Positions 5,182-19,461 of a stretch of 64,000 nt of DNA are shown piece by piece. Under the pieces are notes generated by a model that was given only the letters and a program-made list of their open reading frames with translations, did no database searches and was not told where the DNA came from. Numbering within the stretch: the first letter of the stretch is position 1; each line of letters begins with the position of its first letter. The stretch is from positions 334,566 through 398,565 of the forward strand of contig CAZNZL010000001.1 in the NCBI GenBank assembly GCA_964577565.1. The letters run 5' to 3'. A program made the translations under genes and the position numbers. The DNA is from an uncultured Candidatus Saccharibacteria bacterium (GTDB lineage Bacteria > Patescibacteriota > Saccharimonadia > Saccharimonadales > JAGQNJ01).

Positions 5182-5318
5182 ATTACTCTCAGAATAACAA
5201 AAAATGAGCCAAAAGTGGCTCAAATGTTTGAAAGTATACTGTTTGAAAAACGTTTGGGTTGTATTGGTGCACCTGACCGCGCAGCTCTTGAACTCGGTAC
5301 CTCAGGTGGATCGAGTGT

Positions 5319-5987
5319 TTACAGCTCTGGCCCGGCCGGTCCCGAAGCGTGGTCGGAGGCCGTCGGAGTTCCTCTACCGGTTGGATCCGTAGCGAGCCCG
5401 ACGTGCCAGCGGCCGTCTTCGTCCTGTGATACGTCCAGTTCAGAGAGATCGAGACCACCATCTAGAAGACCCCGGAGCATCTCTCGACCGAGTCCGCGTT
5501 CTGCGGCCGACATGCCTATGTCGTGGGTATAGGACGCCTCGAAGCTGAGTACATCGCTCTGGTGTTGGGCTGGACGCGGTGCTGGTGTCCGACGCGCAGC
5601 GTGGCGCCTGCGAAGTGCTGCCGCTTGTGCTCGGTCGAAAGATTGCTGCCATTCGTCTGCGAACTGACGTACTTCATCACCGTCAAGCATGTCCACGAGA
5701 CGTTGGCCATGTCTCCAGTCGGGTGGTTCCTGTTCTGCCCGACGCTGAGCGCGAGCAGCCTGTCGTTCAGCAGCTACCTCGGCGACGTGTTCTGCGCCCA
5801 GAACCTGATCGACTCGTTTGCCAACAGGAACGATCGCCTGCTCCGCTTGGAGCGCAACTTCTCGTTCTCGCCTTCGTCGTAGGACCCGTTCAGGTTCATA
5901 GGAAGGACCCACACTCGGCAGATCTGACGAAGGTGCTCCCGGTTCACGTTCTCCTGTCATGGGCCACATTATGAGACTCGTTCTCAA
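5319..5987 (-). CDS. hypothetical protein (Arg/Ala/Glu-rich), third gene of the island operon
   Basis: 222-aa ORF co-directional with the two upstream genes, with a 26-nt gap. No motif recognised. The start is uncertain (MTGEREP is an alternative). Confidence 0.45.
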   Translation of the reverse strand: MRTSLIMWPMTGEREPGAPSSDLPSVGPSYEPERVLRRRREREVALQAEQAIVPVGKRVDQVLGAEHVAEVAAERQAARAQRRAEQEPPDWRHGQRLVDMLDGDEVRQFADEWQQSFDRAQAAALRRRHAARRTPAPRPAQHQSDVLSFEASYTHDIGMSAAERGLGREMLRGLLDGGLDLSELDVSQDEDGRWHVGLATDPTGRGTPTASDHASGPAGPEL

Positions 5988-6013
5988 TTCCCTCTAGTGT
6001 GGAATCGACAACG

Positions 6014-6376
6014 TCAGGCAGCTCGTTCGTCCCTGAGCTGCTCTCTGGCGAGGTCGACGAGGGCTCGAGCCAGAGTGGTGAGATCGGGTTCGTCGCGCTG
6101 GTAGGCGGTGACCTTGATGGTGGTCAGCTTCTTGGGGGAGCGAGAGTCTGGGATGGTCATCCGAACCCGGCTGCCACGAGCAACCCGTGGAGGATCTGCT
6201 CCGGGTGGTGGGCTTGGGTTGGTCAGCTCTTCGATGACCGTGAAGCGAAAGCTGGAGGGATCGACAGGGACGTAGGTTAGCTCTGCCGAGACGACAGTTG
6301 CTTCCTCAGTCCCGCGATCTTGCGGGGGGGGGGCGAGGTCATCGCCTGGGTTGGCGAAGAGGGAGAGCTGGGTCAC
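6014..6376 (-). CDS. hypothetical protein, second gene of the island operon; contains a C10 tract
   Basis: GTG start lies 15 nt after the stop of the 911-aa gene (MTQLSLFANPGDDLAPPPQ...). Third-position G/C bias supports the minus strand over the antisense ORF 5999..6280. Confidence 0.5.
   Translation of the reverse strand: MTQLSLFANPGDDLAPPPQDRGTEEATVVSAELTYVPVDPSSFRFTVIEELTNPSPPPGADPPRVARGSRVRMTIPDSRSPKKLTTIKVTAYQRDEPDLTTLARALVDLAREQLRDERAA
6324..6333 (-). repeat. homopolymer G10 (C10 in the coding sense)
   Basis: Counted directly as tgc+ggggggg+ggg. It encodes APPPQ inside CDS 6014..6376. Confidence 0.95.
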
Positions 6377-6391
6377 GGGAGCACCATGCGC

Positions 6392-9127
6392 CTACTTCTT
6401 GAACGAGGACTTAAGCTTCATAGTCCTTCGACTGAATGGAATCGGCCCACCTTCTAGGTGGTCGAGGGCCAACCGGTTGAGCTCGTGGCGTTCGAGCGAA
6501 CCTGATGCCTCGACCTCTCCATGACCAGCAGTCGCTTTCATTGTGACGATCTGCTCGGCATCTCCACTCACCACAATCCCAGGGCTTCGTGTTGCGAACA
6601 GATATTGCCGACTTCCCCGGAGGTCACGCAGACGGTCAACGAGGTACTCCTCAATCCAAGGGGCATGCAAGGCGTCTTCGGGTTGGTCGACTAGTACAGG
6701 CGTGTCCCCGTCAGCGAGCAGGATTACCAGGATGGCTGTGCAGCGTTGGCCATGAGCCAGCTCCTCTATCGCCGTGTACTGGTGATCGTCGGGCTTCTTG
6801 AACTTTATGGTGAGTACATCGGGGCGTTCGATAGTCTGCATCTCCAGGAGCTGCTCCCACATGTTCCGGTCGTCAATGTTGGCGAGAAGCTTCGCGACGC
6901 TGGTTGAGTCGATGCCGTGGGCTGTGTTAACGACTTCGTTGGGCGTCCCGAGCCAGAGGCTGCGTGAGAACTTGAGCGGACTAGTACGCAGCGCAAGTTG
7001 GTGAAGGAAGTCGTCCTTAACGCGTGATCCGACCTTGATCTCATCGAGTGCGTCACGGAAAGCCTTCGCGTCACCCTCATTGGGCACGTCCAGTTTGACA
7101 AACCCCGCAGCCTTTTCATTCAGCTGAAGCACGCGAGCCCGCCTCAGCTCCCGGCGCTCCTTGCGCGCTTCGTGGAGCACATCAATCATCTGTTCGCGTT
7201 GCTGTTCGAGTGTAGCTAGCGCAGGCTTAGCTTGCTCATCCAGCTCTTCCTTTGCGGCTTCGGCGTGGGTCAACTTCCCCTGGAGCTGTTCCAAACTGGC
7301 GCGTAAGGCGGTAAGCGAGGTTCCGTCGGGATCGACCTTCTCTAGCTCTTCGTCGAGCTTCGCCTTGAACTCAATGAACTTGGTAGACCATTGCTTCTCA
7401 ACCAGGCCGAGCTCGTCTGCCGCCTCGGTTAGACCCTTCTCGATAATCTCTAAGCCTTTGGCAACTTGCTCATCGAGCTTCGCAATGGCCTTGGAGGTTT
7501 GCCCAAACAGCTCCTTGTTCGACTCAACCTTGTGAGCGATCTCCGCGTTGGGCACCGCTAGCGTCGGAACTTCAAGTTGTTCGACACGTACTTTGACCTG
7601 CTGCAACGCCGTCTTCTCAGCTGCCCAGCTCGCCTGCTCTTTCACCGCGTCGGTCTTGAACACGTCACTAAGCTTCCGAACCTGCTCCTTAAGATCTGTC
7701 ACCCGTCCAGCATCGTCGGTCAGGCGAGAAACCCGATTACGAGCCGCAATCAACTTGGTGGCATTGGTTCGGAGCCCAGTTGTCGCTGCTGCGATTCGCT
7801 CGTTGATCTCGTCCAAGTCGAGCGCAGAATCGACCAGAGTCATACGGCCGACTGGCTCCCGCGAGTACTCGAGGATCTCGCCTTGCGAGAACGCTGCTAG
7901 AGGACACAGCACTGCCGGATCTACGTCTACGTCAGCCCAGTCTCCACTGGTCTGTTGAGAGACCTGTGCATTTGGGGATCCCGTGGGATCGAAAGTGCGC
8001 TCGATCTTGTAACGCTTGCCTTCGGCAACCAGAACAAGGCGAACAACACTCCCATTCATCAGTGCCTTTTCCATTCGCGAGTCAATCTCGTCACGTATGG
8101 CTGGGAATGAGTCGTGATCTACTTGCTGCTCAAGAGCGAACCGCACTGCCTCAAGGATCAACGACTTTCCCGTACCCGTGCCACCGAGAAGGCAGTTCAG
8201 GTCCGGCGAAAGGTCGATCTTTCCCCCGCCAAGGAACCCACCGATCAGCTCGACAGATTCGATCCGCGCATATGGCGGTGACAATGCTGGTTCTTCTAGA
8301 GTGATTCGCAAGGGAGGATCAGCCAGCGCATGGCGAACGCCTATCAGATCCGGCCGACTGGCCTTGATCCATGTCCGCCTCGCGCCGATGCCGGCAAGCG
8401 AGTGACAGCTGAGCGTTTCGTCCCATGTGTCGGATCCGCGCACGAAAGCCATCGTTCGCTCGTCAGCAATCTTGTTGTTGACATTGTCGATGGTGTCCAT
8501 GTGGACGACCTCGACCGCCGAAATCTGATCGCAAAGCAGAATCTTCTTTTGATGCGCCTTCACGCCAAGCTTTAAGAGACCCTTGGGCTTCTCGATATGG
8601 GCAGCAATAGCGATCCCACCTGCCTTGTCAACTTCAACGGCGGCTTGGGTGAACCCAACATCAGCCGCGATATCGAGCTTGCCTCGGTCCGCTTGTCCGA
8701 TGCCAAGGCGCACAAGCAACTCCTGGATCACCACTGGATCGACACCCTCTTCCCATATGGCGAGGAGGTGTCCTTCCGTAGTGCTGATCTCCACGCCTGG
8801 TAGGACAACTAGCGGACTTTCGGCAGCCGCATCGGCAATCCGCTTGCACCACGTTGCGGTGTTGTGGTCGGTGATCGCGATTGCATCTAGACCAGCGTCG
8901 ATCGCCGCCTGGACGATCTCCGCAGGAGTGCCATAGTGCTCCGGCTTGGCATCTTGCGATCCTGGGGTGTGCACATGGAAATCGACGGCCCAAAACCTTG
9001 CCCAGTCAGCTTTCACGATGCGCACCTTACATACTTCATCACACCCAATTATCACACTCTGCAGGCCCTCAGTCCGTTGCAGAATTCGCAACGCCGTCCG
9101 TCCGCAGCCACTTAGGCCAGCAGGCAA
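6392..9127 (-). CDS. PHP phosphoesterase domain fused to an SMC/Rad50/RecN-like coiled-coil ATPase (Ppl-like architecture)
   Basis: PHP motifs are WAVDFHVHTPGS, AIAITDHNT, GVEISTTEGH and AAHIEKP. Walker A LLGGTGTGKS lies at nt 8162-8185, followed by a long coiled-coil of about 270 aa. The C-terminus carries signature-like HGQR plus Walker B/D-loop VLVDQPEDALH. An alternative GTG start lies at 9025. Confidence 0.8.
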   Translation of the reverse strand: MPAGLSGCGRTALRILQRTEGLQSVIIGCDEVCKVRIVKADWARFWAVDFHVHTPGSQDAKPEHYGTPAEIVQAAIDAGLDAIAITDHNTATWCKRIADAAAESPLVVLPGVEISTTEGHLLAIWEEGVDPVVIQELLVRLGIGQADRGKLDIAADVGFTQAAVEVDKAGGIAIAAHIEKPKGLLKLGVKAHQKKILLCDQISAVEVVHMDTIDNVNNKIADERTMAFVRGSDTWDETLSCHSLAGIGARRTWIKASRPDLIGVRHALADPPLRITLEEPALSPPYARIESVELIGGFLGGGKIDLSPDLNCLLGGTGTGKSLILEAVRFALEQQVDHDSFPAIRDEIDSRMEKALMNGSVVRLVLVAEGKRYKIERTFDPTGSPNAQVSQQTSGDWADVDVDPAVLCPLAAFSQGEILEYSREPVGRMTLVDSALDLDEINERIAAATTGLRTNATKLIAARNRVSRLTDDAGRVTDLKEQVRKLSDVFKTDAVKEQASWAAEKTALQQVKVRVEQLEVPTLAVPNAEIAHKVESNKELFGQTSKAIAKLDEQVAKGLEIIEKGLTEAADELGLVEKQWSTKFIEFKAKLDEELEKVDPDGTSLTALRASLEQLQGKLTHAEAAKEELDEQAKPALATLEQQREQMIDVLHEARKERRELRRARVLQLNEKAAGFVKLDVPNEGDAKAFRDALDEIKVGSRVKDDFLHQLALRTSPLKFSRSLWLGTPNEVVNTAHGIDSTSVAKLLANIDDRNMWEQLLEMQTIERPDVLTIKFKKPDDHQYTAIEELAHGQRCTAILVILLADGDTPVLVDQPEDALHAPWIEEYLVDRLRDLRGSRQYLFATRSPGIVVSGDAEQIVTMKATAGHGEVEASGSLERHELNRLALDHLEGGPIPFSRRTMKLKSSFKK

Positions 9128-9200
9128 AGGGGACTTGAACTCAAACGACCCCTGTAATCAGGGGCCGCAGAGTTCTAGTAATAAGAGTCATTCTCGAAGT

Positions 9201-9276
9201 TGGTGCGGGTGACGAGACTCAAACTCGTGGCCTCTTCCTTGGCAAGGAAGCGCTCTATCAACTGAGCTACACCCGC
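9201..9276 (-). tRNA. tRNA-Gly (GCC)
   Basis: RC is gcgggtgtagctcagttgatagagcgcttccttGCCaaggaagaggccacgagtttgagtctcgtcacccgcacca. The cloverleaf folds by hand and CCA is encoded. Confidence 0.95.
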
Positions 9277-11287: not shown

Positions 11288-11488
11288 ACCTGCTCCTTGT
11301 TTATAGTTAAAGTATAAATGAGATATTTGATTTTATGAATTTTTATTCTATCGGGATCTTGTAGGGGGTCCCCACAAAAACGCTAGGTTTAGTGGGGTAA
11401 AGGAGCGTCAACGAAGGCCTTGCCAAAAATATAACAACCTTGTTTTAGGGAAGTTATATTTCCAGCAAGGTAGTAGTTTGGTGCGACG

Positions 11489-11510
11489 TGGTGGGCGCTG
11501 AGGGACTCGA
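11489..11510 (-). repeat. orphan copy of the last 22 nt of tRNA-Val (T-loop to CCA)
   Basis: tggtgggcgctgagggactcga is identical to 11829-11850. No upstream cloverleaf is present. Confidence 0.9.
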
Positions 11511-11673
11511 CCTACCTTCGGCAGGCCCGGAGGTTCACGATTGGCAAGCCAGTTGCCATCGGAACATTCCCTTGCGGAATGCCACTGGCATTCCTCACCC
11601 CTCCCCTTGGAGTCGGGTGTTCGAGGCCACAATCGACAAACAAAAAGCCCATCCCGAGGATGGACTATTTGTT

Positions 11674-11689
11674 TGGTGGGCGCTGAGGG
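11674..11689 (-). repeat. orphan copy of the last 16 nt of tRNA-Val
   Basis: tggtgggcgctgaggg is identical to 11829-11844 and is followed on the minus strand by its own hairpin plus T-run (11642-11668). Confidence 0.9.
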
Positions 11690-11798
11690 GGCGGTTTCGC
11701 CTCTGCTCAACCCGCTGCGTCGCTTACTCTCCGCCAGCTGGCGAATGTGTGAGCTCCTTGCGAACGAACCCCAGGGTTCTCGTCCCTCAAAACCATAT

Positions 11799-11822
11799 AA
11801 AAAGCCCGTCATTGACGGACTC
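11799..11822 (-). terminator. hairpin plus T-run after tRNA-Val
   Basis: Minus sense reads agtccgtcaatgacgggcttttt. Confidence 0.6.
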
Positions 11823-11828
11823 TTTATA

Positions 11829-11905
11829 TGGTGGGCGCTGAGGGACTCGAACCCCCGACCCCTTCGGTGTAAACGAAGTGCTCTAGCCAGCTGAGCTAAG
11901 CGCCC
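11829..11905 (-). tRNA. tRNA-Val (TAC)
   Basis: RC is gggcgcttagctcagctggctagagcacttcgttTACaccgaaggggtcgggggttcgagtccctcagcgcccacca. Confidence 0.95.
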
Positions 11906-12676: not shown

Positions 12677-12886
12677 CCTTTAATATTTAACTTTAACTAT
12701 TTTGTTGTGGTGCACCTGATGACAGGTGTCTTGAACCTTTAGAGAGTATATCTGACTGGCTATTAAGTAGTCCAGATATAGACTGGGTTTTACAGCTTAG
12801 AAATGCTTCATTATCTGGATTTGTACCACAGTACCAACTCTGATAAGGGCGTGTTATTACTCTCGCTAGAAGTCGTTTGAACCAAA

Positions 12887-13531
12887 TTACTCAGAGACGT
12901 AAAAGGTGTTCTGTGCTTCTTCTAGTAATTGAGGACGACCGAACTCGTCGGAGACCACCTCAACACCACGCTGCTCACAGTATTCAGCAATTTCATTTAC
13001 TCCACCCAGAACCGTTCTAACGGCGGTCTCAAGAGCGACAGCCTCGTCTTGAGTGGGTTTTTCTATGCTCACATCTCTACCAAGAGCTAACTCTACAAAT
13101 GGCTGATCAACTACAATGCCTTTCTTCCCGCTATCATTGGTTTCAATCGCACATATAGGTACATATTTCATAGTTGCAAACTTGAAGAACATATCTCCAA
13201 TCGCACCACTATCTGCTTCAACCTCACCAGCGTAACCCTTTGCAGACTCTTCGAGACACAGACTGTATTTACCGTCTTTCATATTAGGCGTCACACTAAA
13301 ATCGGTACGTAAGTCAGGCTCAGTTTCGGTTGCTGGCTCACCATTTCGCAAAGTAGTGCTTATTGCTCGGAAAAGCATGTCATCACCGAGTATTTTTGTG
13401 CTAAATGCACCCAATGCTTCTGCTAGTACTGCCTTTTTCAGGTCAATATCAAAGTCACCATTATCTTGTGGGATTGGTTCACGTGGTTCTGTCATGGGGT
13501 ACATATTAGCATAATTACTTTGTATTGTCAA
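12887..13531 (-). CDS. hypothetical protein (acidic)
   Basis: 214-aa ORF. No motif recognised. Confidence 0.55.
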   Translation of the reverse strand: MTIQSNYANMYPMTEPREPIPQDNGDFDIDLKKAVLAEALGAFSTKILGDDMLFRAISTTLRNGEPATETEPDLRTDFSVTPNMKDGKYSLCLEESAKGYAGEVEADSGAIGDMFFKFATMKYVPICAIETNDSGKKGIVVDQPFVELALGRDVSIEKPTQDEAVALETAVRTVLGGVNEIAEYCEQRGVEVVSDEFGRPQLLEEAQNTFYVSE

Positions 13532-13693
13532 TAGTTCTTATGCTGTTACTGTGTCGCACAATAAGTATTGTGAGTCAGTACCTAACAGGGGTAGAGCCCG
13601 TTTTTTAGCGACATAGGTGCTTGTCAAGTGCTAGTGTTATTTTCGCCCACCCCTGTTAAATAACATATTATACAATAATGCGATTTGCAGATT

Positions 13694-14788
13694 CTAAATG
13701 TCGTTGCACGAAGGAATGACACCCTTATATGCTTGCTCAAATTGAACGGTTTCTGCTGAACGGCAAGCGTCATAAATACTCTCCTGCACAGCCCTAGCAG
13801 CAGCATGACCAATAATATCTACTTGCGTATATAAGCTGTCCTCTACCTCCTGGAAGTATTGCAGCATACTATTAAATGGATTCTTTAGTTCGCCTGTACT
13901 AAATACAAAAACAGTATCACCGTCAGACGAAGTATGTACAGGATTTATCGCACGTACTTGTCCATGTGAAGCAAGGTGGGCCACTTTCTCTAGATGCAGC
14001 TTCGCCCCTAAGTCTACGTTGATACCTACAACCGAGATAGTTGTATTAGCCCTATCTTGGGTTACGAATTCAATAAGATTTTCGTACGGCTTAAACTTCG
14101 TTTCTTCATCTCTATTTCCCGCAAGCACTTCTCCATTAGGCAAGATGATGTTGCCCAATGAGTTAACCACCGACAATGCACAAACAATAATTCCATTGCC
14201 TAGGTCTACACGAGCAGAGCCAACACCAGCCTTCATAGCACTTGTTTTCGTACCACCCTCTACCCAACGGAACTTACCAACCGAAGTACCAGTTCCAGCC
14301 CCAACATTGCCACTAGCTACTGGCTCCGTATTAGCACTTTCGTATGCTTCACGACCATACACAGGATCGTAGGGTGCAACTTGCATTCCTTGGTCGTAAA
14401 CTATTGCTCCCACAACAGACGGATTATAAATATCCTTGTTCTTACCCGAAACAGAGCCAACTTTGTCTCGTCGCATACACCCCATAATCTCAGAAGCCGA
14501 CATTAAGCCCGTATTGCTTCCGCCAGCAATAAATATTCCTCGTTCTCCATAGTTGGTCTTATCTGCTTTATTTGCTTCAGTCCCAAATGCACCCACAGCA
14601 CCACCATAAGCTTTATATGCAACTTGATACGGTTTATCAAAAAGAATTACAGTGCAGCCAGTTAGCTTATCTAAGTGTGTAGAGTGTCCTACTTTTACGC
14701 CATGTAGGGCTGTAAGTGTATTGTTTTGCATAGTCTTATGCATAGCAGGGAAAAACAGGAATAGCACGGATGTAGCAATTAAGCTCAA
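13694..14788 (-). CDS. S58 (DmpA / P1 family) aminopeptidase
   Basis: LHGVKVGHSTHLDKLTGCTVILF...NVGAGTGTSVGKF...INPVHTSSDGDTVF is the typical DmpA-family pattern. The start is uncertain (TTG 14788 or an internal ATG). Confidence 0.75.
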   Translation of the reverse strand: MSLIATSVLFLFFPAMHKTMQNNTLTALHGVKVGHSTHLDKLTGCTVILFDKPYQVAYKAYGGAVGAFGTEANKADKTNYGERGIFIAGGSNTGLMSASEIMGCMRRDKVGSVSGKNKDIYNPSVVGAIVYDQGMQVAPYDPVYGREAYESANTEPVASGNVGAGTGTSVGKFRWVEGGTKTSAMKAGVGSARVDLGNGIIVCALSVVNSLGNIILPNGEVLAGNRDEETKFKPYENLIEFVTQDRANTTISVVGINVDLGAKLHLEKVAHLASHGQVRAINPVHTSSDGDTVFVFSTGELKNPFNSMLQYFQEVEDSLYTQVDIIGHAAARAVQESIYDACRSAETVQFEQAYKGVIPSCNDI

Positions 14789-14977
14789 AACCCCGTCCTA
14801 GACGCTCTCCGTAGGTCCTAGAGGGCATCCAAATCGGTTCACTATTTAGCCTTGAAATTACTCCAGTTGGTGGTTCCAAATCTTTTTCCCATATTTCTGA
14901 CCGTCAACGCCGTTTTTCGCCGTATATTGTTCTTACCATATCTGACAGCAAAACTCTTAAAAACTATGCAAATGCGA

Positions 14978-15217
14978 CTAGTTAATCTGGAATGGTGTCA
15001 GGAAACTAAACACAACCTTATCCTGGTTGCTGTGAGCTTTCTCCATCTTCTCTGCGAACACTTTGTTACTTAAGTGGCGATAGTAAGTATCACGACTTAT
15101 TCCTGCATACCTACACGCCTCCCCAATAGTGCTATTGTGTTGGATCGAGTCAGCCAGCATCATCATAACCGTATAATTAACCTTAGAGGGTCTGCCTTCG
15201 GCTCTTTTGTATACCAT
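14978..15217 (-). CDS. small helix-turn-helix DNA-binding protein
   Basis: AAGGAG RBS. RAEGRPSKVNY...STIGEACRYAGISRDTYYRHL resembles resolvase/terminase-small-type HTH. It is divergent from the recombinase. Confidence 0.6.
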   Translation of the reverse strand: MVYKRAEGRPSKVNYTVMMMLADSIQHNSTIGEACRYAGISRDTYYRHLSNKVFAEKMEKAHSNQDKVVFSFLTPFQIN

Positions 15218-15280
15218 ATTTACTCCTTTTGGTTTTTGCGGATACCTCTATTCTTATTATCTCAAAACAACAATTTTAAC

Positions 15281-15309
15281 TTGACAATTCTTAAGCATAA
15301 GCGTATAAT
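15281..15309 (+). promoter_or_regulatory. consensus sigma70-type promoter
   Basis: TTGACA (15281-86), a 17-nt spacer, then TATAAT (15304-09). It lies 345 nt upstream of the recombinase ATG. Confidence 0.6.
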
Positions 15310-15659
15310 TAGAAGTACGATAGTGAGTGTCTTGGTGTCATAGAACACATACACACTTGCTTTAGGACTTCCCACCCCTTAGTCGATGTTGTCCTCGATA
15401 ACTTGTCGAGACACATTGGGCTAAGAGATTGATGATCCATCGAATATCCAACTAGTATCAGACGAAACAAGCCCACAGCTAGAAGCGGTGGGTGCTTTTG
15501 GTGTCCACAACAAAAAGACACAAGATATAGACGACGGGCTAATAGAATATGCAGATGCCCTTGAAGCTATAGACGAAAATAACCCGTTAGCCGAACTAAA
15601 TGCGGTGTCAATGTCCGACAACAATGGTGGTCGTATCTTCTACTAATACAAGCTAAAAT

Positions 15660-17249
15660 ATGTTCATGGTACTAGACGAAGAAATTGACCGTACTAAGTT
15701 ACGGTATGTGCTTTATGCTCGTAGGTCTACTACTGATGAAGGTAGTCAGGTTCGTTCTGTACCCGACCAAATCAAGTATTGCAAACGTCACGCCGAAATA
15801 GGGGGGCTAAACATAGTAGCTACGGTTAAGGAAAAAGGTTCAGCCAAGAAGCCAAATATAAAAATACGACCTAAATTTTACGAGTTACTTGATGAAATAG
15901 AGCACGGTGGTAAGTACGATGCTATTCTTTCGTATGCACCGGACAGACTCTCACGCAATATGCTGGACGGTGGTCGTATCATCAACCTACTGGATGAAGG
16001 AAAGATAAAAGACCTGCAATTTCCAACACATCACTTTACTAACGATCCATCTGGAAAACTCACGCTAGGTATCATGTTCTCTATATCTAAGCACTTTTCC
16101 GACGACCTATCTCAAAAGGTTCGTAGAGGGGTATCAGGAAACTGGGAAGAGGGTAAATCAGGGGGCCAACCTAAATGGGGCTATGACCGTGAACCAGATG
16201 GACGTTATCGTCCTAATGAGTGGTTTGATACTGTACAAGAAGCATGGTACATGAGAGCAAGAGGTGCAACAAACAAGATGGTGCTCGATTACTTGCTTGA
16301 GAAGGGCTACCACCGAATGACGAAAATCACGAGAAAGAATAAGAAAACAAAGAAGATACTGCCGACCGAAAAGAGTGTAGGAAATTTGTTCCGTGACCCA
16401 TTCTATTTCGGTATGCTTGAACAAACTCAACAAAATATAGACCTACGCACCGTACAATTAGACTTTGAGCCGATGATAGACGAGGAAATATATAACCAAG
16501 TCCAAGCTCTAGCTTATACTAGAAAGCGAGATATTGACCCCAAGAAAAGGACTGAATTCAAGCCCCTTAGACACTTAGTCTATTGTGGTGTTTGCAAGAG
16601 TGAAAAGTGTATGTCTGTAGGTAAGAATAAGCCAGGGGGTAGCAAACATCTTGTACTGTCATACGAGTGCAAAAACCCTGATTGTACTCGAAAACCTAAA
16701 TCCGTTAGAGCCAAGTTCATCTTTGACGGTATTTACGAGCTACTAGAGAAATTAGAGCTGTCAGACGAAGCGTACGAACGCTACAGCAAACGTATTGACA
16801 GCTTCACTGACGATAAGATTATCAAGATTAAACAAGAAATCTCTAGTAAGAGGGGTGCTTACGCACACAAGAAGAAAGAGCTTGATGAATTGTCGCTCGG
16901 ACTAGGCAAAATTAGCCGTAATTCGCCAGCTTATGTAATAAACGAGAGCAGGATTAACGAGCTGGCAATTGAAACTCAAGATTTAGAAGATGAGATAGAA
17001 AAGCGTAAAGCAAAAATTGCTAATCCGAGCAAAATAAAGCTGACCAAAGAGCAGTTCTTGAACCTCGTAAAATTAGCTCCTGACAAGATGAGAGCGGGTT
17101 CAGCAGTCGAAAAAGACCGTGTCGCACGGATATTATTCTTGAACCTAACCGTAGACAATGAAAAAAGGGTCTATCCTATCTGGAAAGAACCCTTTGCAAG
17201 CCTGGTAAAGGCCATTGAAATGTCGTCTGGTGCGGACGAAAGGACTTGA
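15660..17249 (+). CDS. large serine recombinase (integrase type)
   Basis: The N-terminal resolvase catalytic domain reads YVLYARRSTTDEGSQVRSVPDQ. A recombinase domain follows. Zinc ribbon CGVCKSEKC...YECKNPDC is followed by a C-terminal coiled-coil. Confidence 0.85.
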   Translation: MFMVLDEEIDRTKLRYVLYARRSTTDEGSQVRSVPDQIKYCKRHAEIGGLNIVATVKEKGSAKKPNIKIRPKFYELLDEIEHGGKYDAILSYAPDRLSRNMLDGGRIINLLDEGKIKDLQFPTHHFTNDPSGKLTLGIMFSISKHFSDDLSQKVRRGVSGNWEEGKSGGQPKWGYDREPDGRYRPNEWFDTVQEAWYMRARGATNKMVLDYLLEKGYHRMTKITRKNKKTKKILPTEKSVGNLFRDPFYFGMLEQTQQNIDLRTVQLDFEPMIDEEIYNQVQALAYTRKRDIDPKKRTEFKPLRHLVYCGVCKSEKCMSVGKNKPGGSKHLVLSYECKNPDCTRKPKSVRAKFIFDGIYELLEKLELSDEAYERYSKRIDSFTDDKIIKIKQEISSKRGAYAHKKKELDELSLGLGKISRNSPAYVINESRINELAIETQDLEDEIEKRKAKIANPSKIKLTKEQFLNLVKLAPDKMRAGSAVEKDRVARILFLNLTVDNEKRVYPIWKEPFASLVKAIEMSSGADERT

Positions 17250-17314
17250 ACCTTCACAGGATTGCTCCCACTGGCCCCTCAAGCCAGCGCGTCTACCAAT
17301 TCCGCCACGTCCGC
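17228..17314 (-). tRNA. tRNA-Leu (GAG)
   Basis: RC is gcggacgtggcggaattggtagacgcgctggcttGAGgggccagtgggagcaatcctgtgaaggttcaagtcctttcgtccgcacca. It has a long variable arm. Confidence 0.95.
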
Positions 17315-19291: not shown

Positions 19292-19374
19292 AAATTCCAA
19301 GCACCCATCATAAGTTTCTTATCACCATAATACCATAACCGCATTGCTGTCATGAAACTATTTCACGTAGTTTC

Positions 19375-19461
19375 TGGTGCCGTAGAGAGGACTCGAACCT
19401 CCACGCCCAAACGGGCACTAGTACCTGAAACTAGCGCGTCTACCAATTCCGCCACCACGGC
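19375..19461 (-). tRNA. tRNA-Leu (CAG)
   Basis: RC is gccgtggtggcggaattggtagacgcgctagtttCAGgtactagtgcccgtttgggcgtggaggttcgagtcctctctacggcacca. Confidence 0.95.

Follow-up and report, generated by a model that had tools for sequence, protein, structure and literature searches.

A large serine recombinase gene of Saccharibacteria that is probably split by its own attachment site at the 3' end of tRNA genes

We describe a small integrative element in a 64,000-nt stretch of DNA from an uncultured Candidatus Saccharibacteria bacterium (GenBank assembly GCA_964577565.1, contig CAZNZL010000001.1, positions 334,566 to 398,565 of the forward strand), hereafter called the window. The element most probably occupies window positions 12708-17233 (4520 bp), is bounded by two copies of the hexamer TGGTGC in direct orientation, and carries the gene of a large serine recombinase (LSR; 15660-17249, plus strand) whose stop codon lies inside a convergent tRNA-Leu(GAG) gene. 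Its attachment site (attP) appears to lie within the 3' end of the LSR gene itself, and integration would thereby cut the gene and leave the sequence of the C-terminal tail at the other end of the element. This structural account, comprising the boundaries, the core, the split gene, the geometry of the half-sites and their conservation across the family, is based on the sequences of many independent loci, and we hold it with high confidence. What appears to be new relative to the known systems is that integration at the tip of a tRNA divides the gene of a serine integrase at an attP of its own; the enzyme family itself is known. In the following, attB denotes the empty host site, and attL and attR denote the left and right junctions of the integrated element.

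The tRNA-Leu(GAG) gene (17228-17314, minus strand) was detected by ARAGORN and matched the Rfam tRNA model with 55.8 bits. It is intact and host-derived, and its CCA end is encoded, appearing as 'tgg' on the plus strand at 17228-17230. The LSR and tRNA genes are convergent and overlap by 22 nt; the first-pass annotation of this DNA had placed the LSR stop codon 22 nt inside the tRNA gene, and ARAGORN, Rfam and the coordinates of the open reading frame (ORF) all confirm it. In its integrated, tail-less form, the LSR comprises 529 aa and ends in ...SSGADERT*. Residues 1-523 are encoded by the element, while the tRNA supplies the codons of the final six (GADERT) and the stop. The stop codon TGA (17247-17249) falls within the T-loop (TTCAAGT; reverse complement ACTTGAA).

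The left core hexamer (12708-12713, plus strand) is the crossover region of attL, and the right core hexamer (17228-17233, plus strand) is the reverse complement of the tRNA 3' end GCACCA. When close relatives were compared with the window by BLASTN, a block at 12708-12883 was found to be 77-91% identical, and about 90% identical in the closest of those elements that occupy different tRNA-Leu genes. The homologous block is placed 4.0-5.8 kb upstream of the LSR stop in L003, L004, L005, L007, L008, L009, L010 and L014. In side-by-side alignments of the junctions, the homology begins exactly at the hexamer in eight of nine loci, and further in for L014. To the left of the hexamer, the loci carry unrelated host DNA, often with a terminator hairpin, as would be expected immediately downstream of a tRNA. 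The motif at 12708, which had previously been listed as one of two candidates for the far junction, is thus the true left end. The same internal ends are observed at tRNA-Leu(CAG) (L008 and L004) and at tRNA-Leu(TAG) (L005 and L007). In L008, the element stands between an FAD oxidase gene and tRNA-Leu(CAG); the equivalent place in the window (19301-19461) is empty, and there a hairpin abuts the end of the tRNA.

The bases bordering the two hexamers of the window differ on both sides (g/c on the left, A/G on the right), which argues for a strand exchange inside these 6 bp. The hexamer is also the sole identity common to both junctions in 15 of 41 elements, the window included. Past the right hexamer, the sequence reads GGACGAAAGG in the window, GCGAGAGAGG in L003 and CGCAAAGAGG in L008, and the acceptor and T-stem sequences that follow the elements of close relatives differ, each matching its own host tRNA. 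No second copy of the Leu tRNA 3' end was found in the window with up to 3 mismatches allowed. As the acceptor and T-stem follow the host tRNA and no displaced copy is present, the tRNA body must be host DNA, and the last six LSR codons and the stop are therefore host tRNA sequence. Judging from these junctions, the element needs to restore no more than the CCA, the discriminator and the final two pairs of the acceptor, a stretch in which the two partners do not differ. Of the two possibilities raised by the first-pass annotation, recombination within the tRNA 3' end agrees with the TGGTGC junctions of the related loci, whereas the supply of a 22-nt tRNA 3' segment by the element conflicts with an exchange inside 6 bp and a tRNA body of host origin.

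If position 17233 is joined to position 12714, the LSR reading frame stays open over a further 38 codons and closes with the TGA at 12841-12843. The detached 3' end of the LSR gene (12709-12843, plus strand) encodes GAPDDRCLEPLESISDWLLSSPDIDWVLQLRNASLSGFVPQYQL, i.e. 44 codons counted from the core Gly. The genuine LSR tail thus has 43 aa and is located at the opposite end of the element, about 4.5 kb away. The tail ORF is intact, with the same stop, in all eight close relatives, and the substitutions within it are mainly synonymous or conservative, including a switch between the serine codons TCT and AGT. For tail codons 11-44, the ratio of non-synonymous to synonymous changes (pN/pS) is 0.20 in the coding frame versus 1.17 and 2.54 in the other frames, and it is 0.15 for the last 100 codons of the LSR body. 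By these sequence measures, the tail is coding and under purifying selection. In an alignment of the reconstructed C-termini, the Gly encoded by the core is invariant, a Glu is nearly so, and Tyr always stands three residues from the end; the window tail is homologous to the tails of the uninterrupted genes P0112 and L087/L088. The split ORF and the hexamer junctions together support the earlier suggestion that the attachment site is situated inside the recombinase gene terminus.

Rejoined genes of the predicted form were also found. Several homologues are of a long form with 553-569 aa, and one of them, P0112, ends in GGTEDKTLEPLNSIAEWLMDNPGIAWLDEL..., in clear homology with the tail predicted for the window. 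The contig that encodes P0112, L083 (Logan SRR31511107, k=31 assembly), has 5204 bp and a 30-nt terminal overlap, which makes it a 5174-bp circle. This circle encodes a 563-aa LSR with a homologous tail, carries no tRNA, has an ORF running across the closure point, and contains a small ORF upstream of the LSR gene, as in the window element. When JGI metagenomes were scanned for exact matches to the junction expected, GAAATGTCGTC-TGGTGC-ACCTGAAGACAG, two contigs were found (L087 and L088), both reading ...GAAATGTCGTC TGGTGC ACCTGAAGACAGATGTCTTGAACC... in a continuous ORF that ends in ...AIEMSSGAPEDRCLEPLESISDWLLSSPDIDWNLQLRNASLSRLVPQYQL. No tRNA sequence is present past the hexamer in the attP-form junctions. 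Other long-form genes are P0009, P0090, P0116 and P0117, together with the genome loci L022, L025 and L042. A scan of viral contigs for the attP junction gave no match, and a profile search with the reconstructed C-termini returned mostly short fragments in place of full-length long forms.

The overlap with a tRNA is a trait of the whole family. A protein search yielded more than 500 LSR homologues, nearly all of about 520-527 aa, which come from Saccharibacteria wherever the source names the organism. Their C-terminus remains SSGA(D/R)ERT or alike, i.e. the translated tRNA 3' end, down to 54% identity. In a scan of one genome per species, which gave 80 loci, ARAGORN was run on all loci and each frame was followed to its stop. 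The stop of the LSR homologue lies inside a convergent tRNA, in a constant register, at 60 of the 80 loci: the overlap is 22 nt at 43 loci, 58 nt at 13 loci, where the T-loop TTCGA yields no TGA, and of another length at four loci. In this register, the Gly codon GGN complements the CC of the CCA end. Two loci have a disrupted gene at the equivalent position, nine reach the contig end within about 40 nt of the gene end, and 12 contain long-form genes, tRNA remnants or truncations. The target tRNAs are Leu (gag, cag, tag, taa), Pro (ggg, cgg), Met, Val, Phe, Ala, Ser, Lys, Arg and Ile. At 41 loci, the core (6-12 nt) recurs upstream, with an ORF of 43-48 codons in frame behind it, and the elements so delimited measure 3.0-10.4 kb. 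The overlap of LSR and tRNA genes is far beyond chance, and the meaning that the first-pass annotation had attached to it is supported in its core. The same gene order in all relatives, which that annotation had named as the pattern that would speak against it, was not encountered: the flanks are non-syntenic, the cargo varies and the tRNA targets differ.

With regard to the attachment sites, the P' half-site of attL (12714-12740, plus strand) repeats the T-loop motif of the tRNA, as CTTGAACC at 12730-12737. The B' half-site (17234-17257) is host-derived and consists of the acceptor 3' strand and the T-arm of the tRNA, which is encoded on the minus strand. The P half-site of attR (17203-17227, plus strand) is located inside the last LSR codons (...KAIEMSS); it and P' are imperfect inverted repeats of each other. 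The motif T[TC]GAA, complementary to the T-loop, is found 12 nt past the hexamer in the tRNA (B') at 41 of 41 loci, and 17 nt past the hexamer in P' in 38 of 41 elements and almost nowhere else, with TCGAA in both copies in the Lys-targeting elements L078 and L079. The P' motif TTGAA(CC) is thus 5 bp further from the crossover than its counterpart in the tRNA. For a Listeria integrase, Rutherford et al. found the zinc-ribbon motif in attB to be shifted 5 bp toward the centre relative to attP, and proposed this shift as a general feature of serine integrases (PMC3783163). To judge by the half-site sequences, the family obeys this 5-bp rule for P' and B', the pair compared. As 5 bp is not a multiple of three, the T-loop motif reads as ACT TGA, a stop, in the tRNA register and as CTT GAA, Leu-Glu, in the P' register. 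One DNA signal would therefore end the integrated gene yet let the circular gene run on.

The reconstructed attP is an imperfect inverted repeat with its centre between hexamer positions 5 and 6, where a mean of 10.15 of 26 positions match, versus about 6.2 elsewhere. The Leu, Pro, Lys, Arg, Ile and Phe subfamilies show this centre most clearly. Tentatively, the central dinucleotide would then coincide with the final two base pairs of the acceptor (hexamer positions 5-6). No clear common outer motif is observed between the P and B arms.

The enzyme exhibits the features of the LSR family. The Pfam Resolvase domain (PF00239) matches residues 17-166 with an E-value of 4e-19, and the Recombinase domain (PF07508; DBD1, after helix E) matches residues 191-284 with 23.0 bits against a cutoff of 21.1. 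In an alignment with the catalytic domain of the TP901-1 integrase (PDB 3bvp), YARRST and its serine correspond to YTRVST. R21 and S23 are invariant across 18 LSR homologues, and the four cysteines C309, C312, C337 and C342 are invariant among homologues. The phrog_95 'integrase' family matches residues 10-504 (1e-52). The Pfam zinc-ribbon model did not match the window LSR. The AlphaFold model of the long-form homologue P0112 (mean pLDDT, the confidence score of the model, 74) has long paired helices at residues 365-413 and 419-450. In a Foldseek search, this model gave full-length matches with the SPbeta integrase (9y66, E 8e-18; 9dxh; about 1e-17) and the phiC31 integrase (9rah). On sequence grounds, the enzyme is a member of the LSR family, each defining feature that can be tested in the sequence having been found. 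The invariant cysteines, the P0112 model and the Foldseek matches also indicate a zinc-ribbon domain (DBD2) with an inserted coiled coil. The earlier recognition of an LSR with a YARRST region, a zinc ribbon and a coiled coil is consistent with all of these results. The junction sequences fit an exchange within the 6-bp core; the predicted activity is a conservative recombination of attP with attB by a 2-bp staggered cut.

Characterised large serine integrases target, to our knowledge, protein-coding genes or intergenic DNA and not tRNA 3' ends, and we know of none whose attP lies within the integrase ORF or whose protein is changed by integration. The present enzymes share with those of phages and mobile elements (phiC31, Bxb1, A118/LI, TP901-1 and SPbeta SprA) the same domain set (catalytic Ser, recombinase, zinc ribbon with coiled coil), the short attachment sites, the position of the recombinase gene at the edge of the element, and a zinc motif 5 bp nearer to the centre in attB (PMC3783163). 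Unlike these enzymes, the Saccharibacteria family targets the CCA/acceptor end of many tRNAs, its P' mimics the tRNA T-arm, and its gene sheds the last 43-48 codons on integration. By analogy, the closest counterpart of this layout is the archaeal SSV-type 'suicidal' tyrosine integrase, whose attP is located in its own gene. That gene is partitioned upon integration into a tRNA gene, and in these systems (SSV1, pTN3, pT26-2) the intact integrase gene exists solely in the circular form (PMC8371274). The likeness, i.e. an attP inside the integrase ORF, a tRNA target and a partitioned gene, is one of mechanism and not of family: the SSV-type enzymes are tyrosine recombinases of archaeal hosts, and the present enzyme has a serine recombinase fold and not a tyrosine recombinase fold. 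Moreover, the split takes a large part of the SSV-type enzyme and here just the C-terminal tail beyond the last recognised domain, so that, unlike in the SSV-type systems, the integrated Saccharibacteria gene still encodes a complete LSR with a short substitute tail.

Tyrosine-integrase islands at tRNA genes typically replace the tRNA 3' segment by an identity block of tens of bp and leave a direct repeat. The present elements resemble them in integrating at the tRNA 3' end, in keeping a functional tRNA, in having the integrase gene by the tRNA-proximal junction and in carrying small cargo. They differ from them in having a 6-bp identity in place of the long repeat, a tRNA that is not rebuilt from the element, and a serine recombinase. 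In the literature consulted, whose coverage is incomplete, serine integrases at Saccharibacteria tRNA 3' ends were nowhere found described, nor was a gene of this enzyme class that is divided by an attP of its own, which is absence of evidence only. Nor is tRNA mentioned in the text of the large LSR survey by Durrant et al.

We propose that the window contains a 4.5-kb member of a widespread Saccharibacteria family of integrative elements, composed of the LSR, an ORF of about 50 aa, a helix-turn-helix (HTH) protein and variable cargo. The attP, within the 3' end of the LSR gene, would recombine with a host site inside TGGTGC, which covers the CCA, the discriminator and the last two acceptor pairs. 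Integration would cut the LSR gene, which would then read six codons into the tRNA and take its TGA from the T-loop, with the tail left 4.5 kb away; excision to a circle would rejoin the two parts to a gene of 566 aa. For the window element, the predicted attP junction is ...GAAATGTCGTCTGGTGCACCTGATGACAGG... / ...ATTGAAATGTCGTCTGGTGCACCTGATGACAGGTGTCTTGAACC..., and the predicted attB (empty-site) junction is ...ACTATTTTGTTGTGGTGCGGACGAAAGGAC... / ...TTAACTATTTTGTTGTGGTGCGGACGAAAGGACTTGAACC.... The zinc-ribbon domain probably reads the T-arm motif, in the attB register on the tRNA and in the attP register on the element. As the T-arm is nearly universal among tRNAs, a change of target would mainly need changes in the inner portion of the site, that of the acceptor stem, and this could explain how subfamilies moved among about ten tRNA species.

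Several observations weigh against this proposal or parts of it. The comparison with relatives, suggested by the first-pass annotation as a way of finding an empty attB, provided the analogous unoccupied place at tRNA-Leu(CAG); neither an isogenic tRNA-Leu(GAG) locus free of the element nor a circle of the window element itself was recovered. An exact look-up in public assemblies of the neighbouring ORFs of 94 aa and 238 aa returned just short contigs of the same samples, none of them bridging an empty site. The L083 circle belongs to a relative that is just 54% identical. Junctions of the attP type also occur within chromosomal contigs (L089, L088 and L084), beside decayed copies. From their sequences, these are probably tandem or decayed elements, and L087 and L088 are consequently not necessarily free circles. 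The host-side B half-site downstream of the tRNA has no conserved motif, and the Met subfamily has no dyad centre at hexamer positions 5/6. The putative central dinucleotide is palindromic in the Leu (GC) and Pro (CG) subfamilies, which is unusual for serine integrases and would not fix the orientation. Finally, the AlphaFold model of the P0112 tail consists of two short helices with a pLDDT of 35-56, a confidence too low for any conclusion on the docking or role of the tail.

Two of the chromosomal contigs mentioned above, L089 (ENA ERZ27247837, 5.9 kb) and L084 (GCA_034680565.1), contain lone tail ORFs. One has a C-terminal recombinase fragment still fused to a tail (P0122, P0158), and another has a full recombinase with the tail of a different element, behind which lie a DUF87 ATPase and a second serine recombinase. 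Such arrangements suggest tandem insertion and decay at these sites. Two contigs that carry the recombinase of the window in identical form, L001 and L002 (Logan SRR7082976 and SRR7082966), both stop exactly 30 nt (k-1) past the position of 17228. This corresponds to an assembly-graph branch at the tip of the tRNA in two samples, as could arise from a mixture of sites with and without the element, which it does not prove; variation within the element could also cause these ends, and we give them little weight.

The tail-less integrated and full-length episomal enzymes may differ in activity or regulation. Tentatively, the exchange of tails could be a built-in switch of directionality, in which the topology of the DNA sets the direction of the enzyme, without or alongside a classical directionality factor. 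The full-length LSR made from the circle, with a tail of 43-48 aa ending in Tyr-x-Leu/Tyr, would be the integration-competent or differently regulated form, and the tail-less form would behave differently on attL x attR or in response to the adjacent protein of about 50 aa. For the extreme C-terminus of LSRs, an effect on directionality or an occupation of the site of the directionality factor has been proposed (PMC12286644, with reference to Abe et al. 2021), and a recent paper notes that the C-terminal extensions of some LSRs could block that binding site. By analogy, this makes a functional role of a topology-dependent tail plausible. The C-terminal element of SprA and the C-terminal extensions of the SCCmec Ccr recombinases are, however, always present, whereas here the presence of the tail depends on the circular or integrated state.

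It is also possible, although we would not favour it, that the structure is as described and the tail has no function as a protein, its conservation reflecting the needs of the P' DNA and the direction being set in the conventional way by another factor, either the 52-aa ORF or the HTH protein. The near-invariant residues of the first ten codons (Gly, Leu/Phe-Glu) are indeed encoded by the core and the TTGAA motif, AlphaFold places the tail without confidence, and the conserved small ORF adjoins the recombinase gene, like many directionality factors. An LSR-less island at 5265-9206, described below, has retained P'-like DNA and not the tail ORF. On the other hand, codons 11-44 lie outside the half-site of about 30 bp and yet show the low pN/pS and frame-specific conservation reported above, the length of the ORF is constant at 43-48 codons, and the Tyr at position -3 is invariant in all subfamilies.

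Clustering of the ORFs of the 41 elements identified as common the LSR, the upstream ORF of about 50 aa and the small HTH protein, all else being variable. The small ORF of the window (15488-15646, plus strand; 52 aa, ending in ...DNNGGRIFY) is located 13 nt upstream of the LSR gene and belongs to family F2 (about 50 aa, ...DNNGGRIx(L/Y/F)), which the circular L083 shares with elements that target Leu, Pro and Met tRNAs. Searches of this family gave no family match; it is a candidate accessory or directionality factor. The HTH protein (14978-15217, minus strand; 79 aa) is transcribed divergently from the LSR, as had been noted before, and belongs to family F1, present in 16 of the 41 elements. 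It is thus a conserved gene of these elements and may act as a regulator, a directionality factor or a packaging factor. Its matches are weak, namely to transposase-type HTH families (Pfam, below the curated cut-offs) and to small-terminase families of PHROGs (3e-8). Longer homologues match more strongly: one of 141 aa aligns with phrog_4102 over nearly its full length (4e-10), and one of 187 aa reaches 3e-12.

These PHROGs matches, from the window protein to the longest homologue, would be expected if the elements were phage satellites, in which a small-terminase-like HTH protein diverts the packaging of a helper phage and the recombinase merely integrates and excises. We regard this as rather unlikely. 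The below-cut-off Pfam matches fit a transposase-type HTH equally well, and the window protein has just 79 aa. Apart from the weak small-terminase matches of the HTH family, no hallmark gene of PICI-like satellites was seen, and in the 3-10 kb elements no replication, conjugation, capsid or other packaging genes were observed among the 41 gene contents. No helper phage was identified, and the scan of viral contigs for the junction was empty.

A classical tRNA island would carry its own tRNA 3' end, of about 22 nt or more, with the displaced host fragment at the far junction. The coincidence of the gene end with the tRNA 3' segment would fit such an island, and so would the left junction of the syntenic relative L014 (L014:7284-7330), where 27 nt of the tRNA-Leu 3' end are fused at CTTGAACCT to the outer P'. 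We nevertheless consider it very improbable: no second Leu 3' end is present in the window, the identity of attL and attR is limited to TGGTGC in the window and 14 other loci, the acceptor and T-stem follow the host tRNA in close relatives, and the attP-form junctions lack tRNA sequence past the hexamer. In L014 itself, the recombinase gene is disrupted, with an early stop in the frame at L014:10001-11641, and the junction looks like a secondary rearrangement. The left half-site of L014 has acquired an attB-like spacing as a result of the fusion, and its sequence looks like that of an element locked in place by recombination between its two TTGAACC motifs.

A fixed, domesticated chromosomal recombinase, e.g. 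an invertase or resolvase overlapping the tRNA incidentally, could be imagined in compact Saccharibacteria genomes, where gene overlaps are frequent and the recombinase is intact in most loci, but it is hardly credible given homologues that occupy about ten tRNA species and, among close relatives, differing Leu isoacceptors, non-syntenic flanks up to a sharp boundary, cargo that varies between copies, the existence of a circular form, and directly oriented sites that give excision and not inversion.

The remaining genes of the window element are cargo. An ORF of 214 aa (12887-13531, minus strand) has no Pfam, PHROGs or PADLOC match and is not conserved among related elements. A peptidase of family S58 (DmpA-like; 13694-14788, minus strand; 364 aa; Pfam PF03576, 2e-32) is missing from the related elements, which have other cargo. 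Between these two genes, a conserved intergenic block (13551-13693) is present in nine related elements. Within it, a 12-bp inverted repeat is invariant; its arms, TAACAGGGGTGG (13647-13658) and CTACCCCTGTTA (13583-13594) in minus-strand reading, are 52 nt apart around TTGACA (13622-13627), with TATAAT at 13666-13671, upstream on the minus strand. Neither compensatory changes nor an Rfam match were found for this block, so that a structured RNA is not supported. It is probably an operator or promoter region, possibly an operator for the HTH protein of the element.

A second island, without a recombinase gene, is located at 5265-9206 of the window at tRNA-Gly(GCC). Its left end, TGGTGC followed by 16 nt and CTTGAAC, has the P' geometry of the LSR element, and its right end is the tRNA-Gly 3' end, TGGTGCGGG, at 9201. 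With a GC content of about 58% versus about 43% in its flanks, it encodes a 911-aa protein with PHP and AAA ATPase domains that matches the PADLOC defence protein Ppl (8e-51), two ORFs of unknown function and no tail ORF. It may be a decayed relative of the LSR element or may be mobilised in trans. Further on, 22 nt of the 3' end of tRNA-Val(TAC) (11829-11905) recur without change at 11489-11510 and in part at 11674-11695, and a hairpin precedes each copy. The stretch 11479-11905 has 55% GC, and directly next to the first copy there is a lone TGGTGC at 11479. Both copies look like remnants of repeated insertions at tRNA-Val. The Leu-like fragment at 11479-88, the other former candidate for the far junction of the LSR element, adjoins them and was rejected as part of this separate set.

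A complete genome, that of Candidatus Nanosynbacter sp. TM7-008 (NZ_CP157587.1; L037), contains a 7.6-kb member of the family at tRNA-Leu(GAG), with the 22-nt overlap and an intact detached tail, and would be a practical system for experiments.

Serine integrases are workhorses of genome engineering with large DNA, and the control of their direction is an active structural question. The family described here would provide a natural case in which the C-terminus of the enzyme depends on the state of integration, so that the role of C-terminal extensions could be tested with two defined forms of a protein. It also offers more than 40 matched pairs of attP and attB over about ten tRNA targets, each opposing a tRNA T-arm to a mimic shifted by 5 bp, which are suited to learning specificity. 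If the zinc ribbon indeed reads the universal T-arm, this would be a naturally retargetable integrase family. Saccharibacteria belong to a phylum that is hard to manipulate genetically, and since attB is already present in their tRNA genes, these enzymes are a potential ready-made tool for integration there. For the biology of these bacteria, the finding means that very small cargo islands (3-10 kb) circulate in their reduced genomes, and the neighbouring island in the window carries an anti-phage gene.

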